Shown here: positions 34,201 through 37,200 of the stretch, piece by piece | Layout: each line of letters starts with the position of its first letter | Position numbering within the stretch: the stretch's first letter is position 1 | Assembly: GCA_951406725.2 (NCBI GenBank) | Contig: OX597826.1 | Coordinates: 53,506,001-53,570,000, forward strand | DNA length: 64,000 bases | From: Octopus vulgaris | Taxonomy: Eukaryota | Reading direction: 5' to 3' | The notes under the pieces: model-generated | Seen by the model: only the letters and a program-made list of their open reading frames with translations | Database searches by the model: none | What the model was told of the DNA's origin: nothing | Position numbers and translations under genes: made by a program

Positions 34201-37200
34201 TATATTTACACACACTTATGTATGCATGTTAGCGTGCTTGTATTTGCCAACAGTTGTTGGTTTGTTTACGTCACAGTAAGTTAGCAGTTTGGCAAAAGAG
34301 ACCAGTAGAGTAAGTACCAGACTTTAAAACAAAAACGTACTGGTGTTGATATTTGTTTGACTAAACCTCTTCAAGGCATTGCCCCAGCATGGTCACAGTT
34401 AAACGACTGTAAAACACATAAAATATAAATAATCCTTTCTCCTGGAAGCACAAGGCCTCAAATTTGGGGAAGGGATTAAGTCGATTACATCGATCCCAGT
34501 GCGTAACTGGTACTTATTTAATCGACCCCAAAAGGATGAAAGGCAAAGTCGACCTCGGCGGAATTTGAACTCAGAACGTAGCAGCAGATGAAATACCTAT
34601 TTCTTTACTATCCATAAGGGGCTAAACACAGAGAGGACAAACAAGGACAGACAAATGAATTAAGTCGATTATATCGACCCCAGTGCGTAACTGGTACTTA
34701 TTTAATCGACCCCAAAAGGATGAAAGGCAAAGATGACCTCAGTGGAATTTGAACTCAGAATGTAATGATGGGCGAAATATCGCTAAGAATTTCACCCAGC
34801 GGGTTAACAATTCTGCCAGCTCACCGCCTTAAATAAAAGATAAATAATAAAAAGGATATTTGGAAGACATAGAGAGAGAGAGGGTGGGTAGGGAGAGGTG
34901 AAACAAACAAAAGTGACTGCAAGCCAACCTGCATGTGAAAAATCATAAGCTCATTGGCTAACTGGTTGCGACGCTGAGAAACATCCAGCTTCTGGTACAT
35001 GACGCACTGTAACAAGAAAAAAAAATGAAAAACAACAATAATGTAAGGGTGAGTGCAGGACATGCAAGCAAGAGCTAGTACAACAATGGGACGGGTTGTT
35101 TCCTGGGTTACCTTCATGTGATACATCATCAGTTCGTTTATCAAATTGTTCCTGGCTTGGGAATCTATCACTTTGTTGTACATAAGAGACTGGAAAAGAT
35201 GACAATTTCGCAGTTAAGACCAGCTGAACGCATGTCATCTATTTTCACATCAAACATCTCCAACTAATGCAGTTTGGCTGTATCTGTCAATTTTTCACTG
35301 GGTTACTATTACAACAATTAACACATGAGAAACATAACAATTTAATAAACTATATTAGTAAACGAGAAAACAGTCTATGTGACTTTAGCAATTATTCGGA
35401 CTGATTCGGTAAAGATCGATCTCTCTCTACCTTCATTTAAATTATTGAGATTAGATGATACATGGATATGGTAGACAAAAAGAAAAAAAAAAATCAATTG
35501 GAATTAATCAATTGTAACAAATAAATAATTAGTAAAGAACAGTACAAATAGATCAATAAATAACTGTTTGCGTGTTTGGATAAAATAGTAAAAACAACTG
35601 CATGTATCTGTACATATACATATATATACAAACATATATGTCTGTGTCTGTGTTTGTATATATATATATATATATATATATATATGTGTGTATGCATATA
35701 TATATATATATGTATATGTATATATATATATATATGTCTATGTATATATATATATATATATATATATATATATAATAATAATAATAAATATTAGGGAATA
35801 AATCTAAATTTACAGGGAAAAATCAGATTTAGGATTGAATCCAATTTTATAGTAAAATATAATATAATATTAATTAGAGACAAAACCACTATTATGCAAA
35901 TCAAACAAAGAAAGACTTAATCCAATACATAAAAAATTTTATATAAATTAAATATAATTAAGATATCCACTACGATCGTAGTGGATATCTTAATTATATT
36001 TAATTTATATAAAAAATTTTATGTATTGGATTAAGTCTTTGTTTGATTTGCATAATAGTGGTTTTGTCTCTAATTAATATTATATATATATATATATATA
36101 TATATATATATATATATATATATATATAATAAAATATTACTCATTATCTTTTATTAAATTTTTAATACTTTTGATATATATTTAAAATAATATAAATTAA
36201 TTAATTTTATGTATTGGCTTAAGTTTTTCCTTGTTTGATTTGCCTAATAGTGGTTTTATCTCTAATTTAATATAATATATATATATATATATATATATAT
36301 ATGCATGTGTGTTTTCACACACACATACACTTGGTATTTATAATCTTCTTACAACATGGCCATGTGTTATAACTCTTAATTCTTCAAATAAGACTCTTAA
36401 AACTCTTCTATGAAGAGATGAGAGGTATTAATATGTGCCAGGTTTTTATCCAGCATTGAAGAATGTAGTGATGACCCAGCTGGCATGAGACAGAAAGGAT
36501 CTGGAGAGGATTGAGTAATTAGTAATAATAACATGAAATATACAATATATATAATATATATATATATATATGTTGCATTTTGGGAGGGCCATATTGGCAA
36601 TAAGAACACACACATTGGTTGCATTTCACTTCAGTTTTATTATGAGTTAATTAAACATTTAGTTATTCGATTAAATTAATTATTGATTAATTACTGATTA
36701 GTTTGTTAAACTTTAATCACAGCCTTCCCCCCTTTTACACACTCCATGTTCTTTACTATGTGAGTAATGGTTAATTCTGAATTTTATTCAGTCAATTTTA
36801 TTTACATAGTGTGTGTCTGTTGTTTAATTTTTAACTGGAGTGGTGGTGCTGCTACTCTGTGTGTGTGTTGTTGCATGTGATCATGAATGTCTATGTGTGG
36901 GGTGTTGTGAGTTGAAATTTTGGGACTTTTGAGATCAGACAATGTTGCTTACACAAACCAGTGTATGTGTGTGTGTGTGTGTGTGTGTGTGTGTGTGTGT
37001 GTGTTCATGTGTGTATGAGCATATGCATGTGTGAATTTATATGTTGTTTTTTTCTTTTGTTTTGCTTGAGACTTATAATTTGTTTTTTCCTTGTCCATTC
37101 AATATGTTCAATGCAACAACCCCCCCCACACACATACATCCATGCACAACCAGCACTACCAACACCACCTTGATCCCAATTTTTAAAAAAATATCATACA

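Follow-up and report, generated by a model that had tools for sequence, protein, structure and literature searches.

A predicted RNA structure that may bias the choice between two linker exons of octopus PDE2

How is one of two adjacent exons chosen when the inclusion of both would leave the reading frame intact? This question is raised by exons 7a and 7b, a pair of tandem homologous exons on the minus strand of a 64,000-nt stretch of Octopus vulgaris DNA (the window). Each exon has 78 nt and is in phase 0, and the two peptides are 56% identical. An initial annotation had argued that NMD is unable to police double inclusion because both exons preserve the frame; this holds, and the either-or pair that it assumed is real. 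Our tentative answer, which we favour without great confidence, is that the intron upstream of 7a may work as a structural dial that biases the choice, whereas exclusion is enforced by other means.

Judged by sequence comparison, the gene is PDE2, the cGMP-stimulated phosphodiesterase. Isoform X1 of the O. bimaculoides protein (P0109) has its best match to PDE2A (E 9.5e-268, compared to 4.5e-106 for cGMP-specific PDE), and its exons align to the window on the minus strand, where exon 6 lies 12.8 kb upstream and exon 8 lies 27 kb downstream. The 7b peptide corresponds to residues 557-582 of this isoform, which places it after the GAF match (411-553) and before PDEase_I (660-890), and it matches human PDE2A 552-576; a tblastn search with the same peptide detected the paralogue 7a at 35189-35112 (minus strand). 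Exons 7a and 7b encode the linker from GAF-B to the catalytic domain. In the available part of a report on a PDE6/5 chimera (PMC13199883), the helix that joins these domains is LH2, which contacts the H-loop; from its position, the octopus linker exon would correspond to the LH2 helix. The exons are arranged as follows.

48028..48170, minus strand: exon 6, constitutive, upstream, end of GAF-B; joined to 7a and to 7b in RNA contigs
35112..35189, minus strand: exon 7a, 78 nt, a-type linker; present as 6-7a-8 in run X20 and as 7a-8 in run X4
35007..35111, minus strand: 7a-7b intron of 105 nt that keeps the frame and lacks stops; branch-point-like A at +62, +68 and +86, imperfect at +36
34929..35006, minus strand: exon 7b, 78 nt, b-type linker; present as 6-7b-8 in run X20
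7804..7923, minus strand: exon 8, constitutive, downstream, 27 kb off; placed by the P0109 exon mapping and by RNA contig ends

In run X20 (organism E), separate contigs carry 6-7a-8 (depth 7.17) and 6-7b-8 (depth 3.88), where the joins are based on loose contig ends that were matched by eye to exon 6 and exon 8. Run X4 contains 7a joined to exon 8 as well as unspliced cover of both introns. That these two runs are of RNA type is a guess, and their exon-exon junctions show spliced RNA. A join of 7a to 7b is absent from the contigs of both RNA-type runs, in an assembly form that drops rare transcripts. We conclude that 7a and 7b are a real mutually exclusive pair that arose by tandem duplication. 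The 105-nt intron is found unspliced in run X4 at depth 11, which may reflect nascent RNA or DNA. Exon 7a, this intron and exon 7b together form one open frame of 130 codons, and retention of the intron would escape NMD.

The swap itself is already annotated as isoforms. The 7a and 7b peptides of the O. bimaculoides PDE2A-like isoforms X1 and X2 (XP_052828433.1 and XP_052828434.1) are identical to those of the window, and single-exon a and b forms are both annotated, in named records, in 15 mollusc species (two Octopus, Pecten, Argopecten, two Haliotis, two Patella, Gigantopelta, four oysters and two Mytilus). The RefSeq isoforms X1/X2 and the a/b pairs of the 14 other molluscs represent the same exon swap, which is known as annotation only; our literature search yielded no paper on the 7a/7b pair or its regulation. 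Among 46 distinct linker peptides, 19 form the a class, with M at position 22 in 18 and K at position 26 in 18; the remaining 27, about eight of which are non-mollusc or divergent, have H at position 12 (19 peptides), I at position 22 (17) and Q at position 26 (20). Dreissena and Mya have two a-type exons each. In two b-type ORFs, the peptide read through past the exon (V-C) fits an ordinary donor and is uninformative on the donor bases.

Gene models of nine mollusc species, including five RefSeq isoforms of Pomacea, hold two linker exons in tandem. These models speak against strict exclusivity, yet they may be model artefacts. Several gastropod models contain both linker exons (P0035, P0133-P0136, P0081, P0167, P0010 and P0072); if real, they would lengthen the linker by 26 residues.

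The initial annotation had built a duplex over the 7b donor from four short strings, all of which we found at their positions with the pairing that it had reported.

35267..35279, minus strand: element I, 12/13 complementary to the 7b donor (34934-34922), with A opposite G+1 as the sole mismatch
35242..35250, minus strand: element II, 9/9 complementary to the 3' end of exon 7b (34941-34933)
34922..34928, minus strand: 7b donor, intron side; opening cost of 11.3 (first of 13) and 9.0 kcal/mol (second of 13) in two window sizes

The targets of elements I and II overlap by 2 nt, so that the joint duplex comprises 19 Watson-Crick pairs over 20 nt with an intron-side loop-out of 16-18 nt, in line with the roughly 20 bp that had been claimed. 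Both elements are located upstream of 7a, 61-90 nt before its acceptor, a placement that the initial annotation had left unstated; the duplex would thus enclose about 300 nt and loop out the whole of 7a. The I+II pattern and the surrounding region are single-copy in genome G000, which rules out that element I is part of a repeat. A search of Rfam returned no family on the elements, and three sub-threshold miRNA matches all fell on a dinucleotide repeat.

To what extent does this match exceed chance? With the donor fixed, shuffling of the upstream 400 nt reproduced the Watson-Crick alignment score of 24.75 in 26 of 5000 trials, and none of 194 overlapping real intron tiles reached it. The duplex energy is -21.9 kcal/mol compared to -14.0 ± 3.0 in shuffles, with 69 of 5000 reaching the observed value. 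Shuffled controls had been named as a check in the initial annotation, and their outcome depends on the target: the match stands out modestly with the donor fixed and by energy, but not with a wide target (7a to 60 nt past the 7b donor), for which 395 of 3000 shuffles reach 24.75. All these statistics are modest and were computed after the match was seen; we estimate that the I+II match is above chance by about two orders uncorrected and by about one after eight splice-site-by-side choices. The complementarity thus exceeds chance only modestly.

It is a serious possibility, although a somewhat doubtful one, that the complementarity is due to chance and that exclusivity results from the short 7a-7b intron, where an early branch point would interfere sterically with the 7a donor, together with protein regulators. 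Apart from the wide target, this reading is supported by another donor of the gene that scores as high (25.25, reached in 14/300 shuffles, the only higher score in 27 other donor-by-flank tests), by the two flanking introns, in which at least 25 of 3966 overlapping 46-nt windows bind the 7b target more strongly, and by the lack of anti-cooperative coupling in the folds described below. However, the donor-fixed result, the ranks of the buried sites and a look-alike of element I in a clam-like locus would then all be coincidences. Steric interference is known from pairs in which the distance from donor to branch point is below 50 nt (57 of 629 human clusters according to the accessible text of PMC5740500). 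PDE2 resembles these in its short intervening intron and its frame-neutral exons, and the branch-point-like A at +62 and +68 and the imperfect one at +36 are near that cut-off; nevertheless, the best, consensus-like motifs (+62 and +68), which are putative, lie just outside it. Furthermore, the tandem linker exons in the models of nine species, if any are real, oppose a universal steric block.

Can the complementary elements be expected to pair? We folded the region at equilibrium in seven windows (three narrow and four wide) at 37 and 18 C, in a model that has proteins and kinetics outside it. Three further features became relevant.

34953..34959, minus strand: second copy, within exon 7b, of the hexamer in element I; its predicted local hairpin on the 7b donor rivals element I, with a probability of 0.04-0.98 depending on the window
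35233..35246, minus strand: element II', overlapping II and absent from the initial annotation, the 5' arm of a predicted hairpin on the 7a pyrimidine tract (8 + 4 pairs)
35190..35218, minus strand: 7a branch-point-like site (A at 35214), pyrimidine tract and AG, assigned from motifs and folding; 3' arm of the hairpin at 35204-35193

The claim of a pairing over the 7b donor was retained in part. The donor is predicted to be buried, and the element I helix has a probability of 0.27-0.95 in the three narrow windows, compared to about 0 in the four wide ones (37 C). The continuous I+II duplex is not predicted: the element II helix remains at or below 0.06 in all seven windows at both temperatures, and forcing the full duplex costs 3.7-11.3 kcal/mol. 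In the four wide windows, the hexamer within exon 7b (34959-34954), which is identical to that of element I, takes the donor at 0.98 (37 C). Which helix wins the 7b donor thus depends on the folding window. The donor is the costliest to open of 13 donors in one window size and second in the other; in the window that ranks it first, element I lies outside and the burying is done by the exon-internal hairpin. The initial annotation had also suggested that the duplex explains the non-consensus GUUGGC donor. We find no need for a special explanation, as its pairing to the U1 consensus (-6.9) is within the range of the gene's donors (-5.6 to -10.9; 7a -6.5).

At the other end of the pair, the 7a acceptor has an opening cost of 9.6 kcal/mol, the highest of 14 acceptors. 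The II' hairpin, which was matched by 23 of 1000 shuffles and is the best among the gene's 14 acceptors, has a core probability of 0.61-0.96 in 9/9 nascent-transcript snapshots. The last 80 intron nt before 7a have an MFE z-score of only -0.82, which counts against the dial. In the equilibrium folds, two further nested helices (35225-35178 with 34999-34960, minus strand) place the 7a branch region and acceptor onto the body of exon 7b; they loop out the branch-point motif and have probabilities of 0.74-0.81 in the wide windows (37 C). Another predicted pairing joins the 3' half of 7a to the branch-point and pyrimidine region of 7b (35143-35122 with 35051-35026, minus strand), with many pairs above 0.95 and several G-U pairs.

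Both the II'/II segment and the donor hexamer have two partners, and the outcome of their competition is window-dependent. This raises the alternative of a true switch, an ATE1-like form of the one proposed in the initial annotation, in which the shared element II pairs either with the 7a acceptor, so that 7b is used, or, together with element I, with the 7b end and donor, so that 7a is used, and in which the competition itself bars double inclusion; we consider this unlikely. In its favour, the two partners of element II share its bases 35246-35242, the II' hairpin is lost (core 0.01) if I+II is forced, and in the narrowest window an open 7a acceptor raises helix I to 0.75 and helix II to 0.66 (0.31 and 0.26, and 0 and 0, in the two others). 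The narrowest window, however, also lets the element I helix (0.87) and the II' hairpin (0.88) stand side by side, so that both exons would be shut, and when the 7b donor is kept open the 7a acceptor is not consistently closed (core 0.02, 0.58 and 0.01). Moreover, either-or coupling is absent from the folding model: opening the 7a acceptor slightly eases the opening of the 7b donor in 10 of 10 equilibrium folds (-0.3 to -3.9 kcal/mol), which is cooperative. The equilibrium model thus predicts two shut sites rather than a switch. The same ten settings lend no support to the proposal that the duplex silences 7b when 7a is chosen.

The precedent for such a switch is human ATE1, the closest system in its working, where, as described in the accessible text of PMC7797038, competing R1R3 and R3R4 pairings at exons 7a/7b hide one of two 3' splice sites. 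ATE1 and octopus PDE2 both have a cluster of two exons and a shared intronic element with two partners, which for PDE2 are predicted ones; the pairing covers splice-site sequence in ATE1, and would do so in PDE2, instead of bridging sites. In ATE1 the shared element is located between the exons and both partners are alike, being 3' splice-site regions, whereas the element of PDE2 is upstream of both exons and its partners are one acceptor and the end and donor of the other exon. The ATE1 pairing is kept across vertebrates and has been proven by compensatory mutants; that of PDE2 is predicted. The likeness to docking/selector pairings that the initial annotation had drawn is looser. As in srp, Dscam1, 14-3-3zeta and Mhc, the predicted partner of an element that precedes the cluster lies beyond the first exon, which would be looped out. 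The available portions of the literature describe docking/selector pairings for Dscam1, 14-3-3zeta and Mhc and a model in which Dscam exon 6 variants are looped out (PMC6071210), and an intron-intron pairing upstream and across the first exon that promotes the second in Drosophila srp exon 4 (PMC4691838). While srp and Dscam exon 6 loop exons out, the PDE2 pairing would cover a splice site, as in ATE1; the srp partner, as far as that text describes it, is intronic and the second exon is promoted, whereas the predicted partner in PDE2 comprises the end and donor of the second exon itself, so that this exon would be hidden, an effect of opposite sign.

It is very unlikely that the intron stretch primarily serves as an editing-complementary sequence, forming a long imperfect duplex with 7b for ADAR with a secondary effect on splicing: the nested helices (35225-35208 and the 7a acceptor region to the 7b body), a co-linear rod over all of 7b (-57.0 versus -40.8 ± 4.8; 5/2000 shuffles) and the abundant recoding in heavily edited coleoid transcriptomes, as stated in abstracts, are in its favour, but the intron-only part of the rod is weak (144/2000), X20 shows no deviating letter in its contig of spliced 7b and, in X4, the unspliced contig that spans 7b is without T>C on the plus strand (contigs hide minority editing), and two proteins of the cuttlefish cluster share the genome-derived 7b peptide. 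PDE2A was absent from the supplementary files examined from PMC8382921, PMC4384741, PMC9068888 and PMC9989829, whose editing-site tables are perhaps elsewhere.

We return to the structural dial. On the nascent RNA, the II' hairpin would be the first to form, such that element II' folds onto the 7a acceptor and hides it, and element I, or its twin hexamer in exon 7b, would hide the 7b donor. The exon pair, its two spliced forms and the complementarity are observed; the presence of these helices in the cell is inferred, as is the need for splicing factors to open one of the two. If U2AF/U2 opened the II' hairpin, element II would be freed and could extend the element I helix over the end of 7b. 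Because the folding model shows no either-or coupling, we assign strict exclusion elsewhere: the double form would be excluded by the short 105-nt intron with its early branch points or by protein regulators. What counts for the dial is that the two sites in need of control, the 7a acceptor and the 7b donor, are predicted to be buried most deeply among the splice sites of the gene, together with the ranks of the II' hairpin, the I+II shuffles and tiles, and the comparisons with organism E and the clam-like locus given below. Against it count the wide-target shuffles, the window dependence of the folds and the weaker results of these same comparisons. The RNA structure is suggestive and plausible, if unproven.

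The I/II pairing is kept in close octopus runs, a comparison among near-identical sequences that are too close to reveal covariation. Organism E differs from the window by 0 substitutions at the 143 positions 35190-35332 (plus two 1-nt indels) and by nine in the next 268 nt, where the count used 13 of the contig's 15 substitutions; this contrast has a Fisher p of 0.03, or 0.16 with a fixed 150-nt boundary, the former counting for the dial and the latter against it. One of the indels, also counted in its favour, is an extra A in element I at the G+1 mismatch, which changes the helix from -17.8 to -16.8 (1 kcal/mol). In wide folds, element I can alternatively pair with 35347-35359 (0.96). Three substitutions in other runs fall in this competing upstream helix and two of them break a pair; we set it aside as unconserved.

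Beyond octopus, a metagenome scan detected 21 PDE2 loci, and the linker is a separate exon only in L002 and L003, which overlap at their ends and whose peptides are similar to those of the paired a-type exons in Dreissena and Mya; further orthologue DNA was found in 0 of 68 genome_contigs and 0 of 129 viral_contigs. In the 19 non-mollusc-like loci (L004-L022), the linker is without a preceding acceptor AG and no second copy was found; in most of them, the bases upstream of the linker extend the GAF-B reading. The exon duplication may have required an intron ahead of the linker. The test for the RNA elements outside octopus used L002/L003, with their a-type exons, and not the remaining 19 loci. 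The clam-like locus (L002 1681-1914, L003 448-640) has two tandem a-type exons. After the first of these there is a b-like remnant or a 12-nt microexon, and the second is followed by an intron similar to the one between 7a and 7b in octopus (5/2000). This layout suggests that a unit of a, intron and b was duplicated and that b was then lost.

At 85 nt before its first exon, L002 contains a 9/13 look-alike of element I, whose first six bases are the exact complement of +2..+7 at the sole AG/GT within 150 nt downstream. Compared to octopus, one C-G pair is replaced by U-A, an apparent compensatory change between sequences whose homology is unproven. By a strict definition, such a look-alike arose in 241 of 50000 upstream shuffles, and by a loose one in 3269 of 50000. 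Its helix has a probability of 0.35-0.89 in a folding window chosen around it, and the in-frame stretch before the AG/GT site resembles the end of a b exon. L002 contains no intact b exon, and the DNA alignment of the site to 7b is not significant (251/1000). The score of a longer duplex (1452/3000) and the direct similarity of the octopus and L002 upstream introns (1698/2000) are at chance, which counts against the dial, whereas the look-alike itself counts for it. The acceptor of L002 has an 11-pair hairpin (65/1000 shuffles). As targets, the locus's own a1 end is a candidate alternative (18/3000), and a pairing of the element with the a2 donor was rejected as chance (841/3000). We regard the look-alike, a likeness in sequence, as a lead rather than proof.

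With respect to the biology of the family, molluscs swap precisely the segment that joins GAF-B to the catalytic domain of PDE2, and the class-specific residues are kept in cephalopods, bivalves and gastropods. As it is the linker that is swapped, the two enzymes may differ in their activation by cGMP. If the pairing is functional, PDE2 would provide a molluscan case of an exon pair under the control of RNA structure; its geometry, acceptor versus donor, would differ from that of srp, Dscam1 or ATE1, and its span would be only about 370 nt. A more far-reaching proposal, which we consider improbable at present, is that this is a mollusc-wide module, from clams to octopus, in which one intron segment would toggle between hiding the acceptor of the first exon and hiding the donor of the second, swapping the allosteric linker of PDE2 and so altering by tissue or temperature how cGMP binding activates the enzyme.
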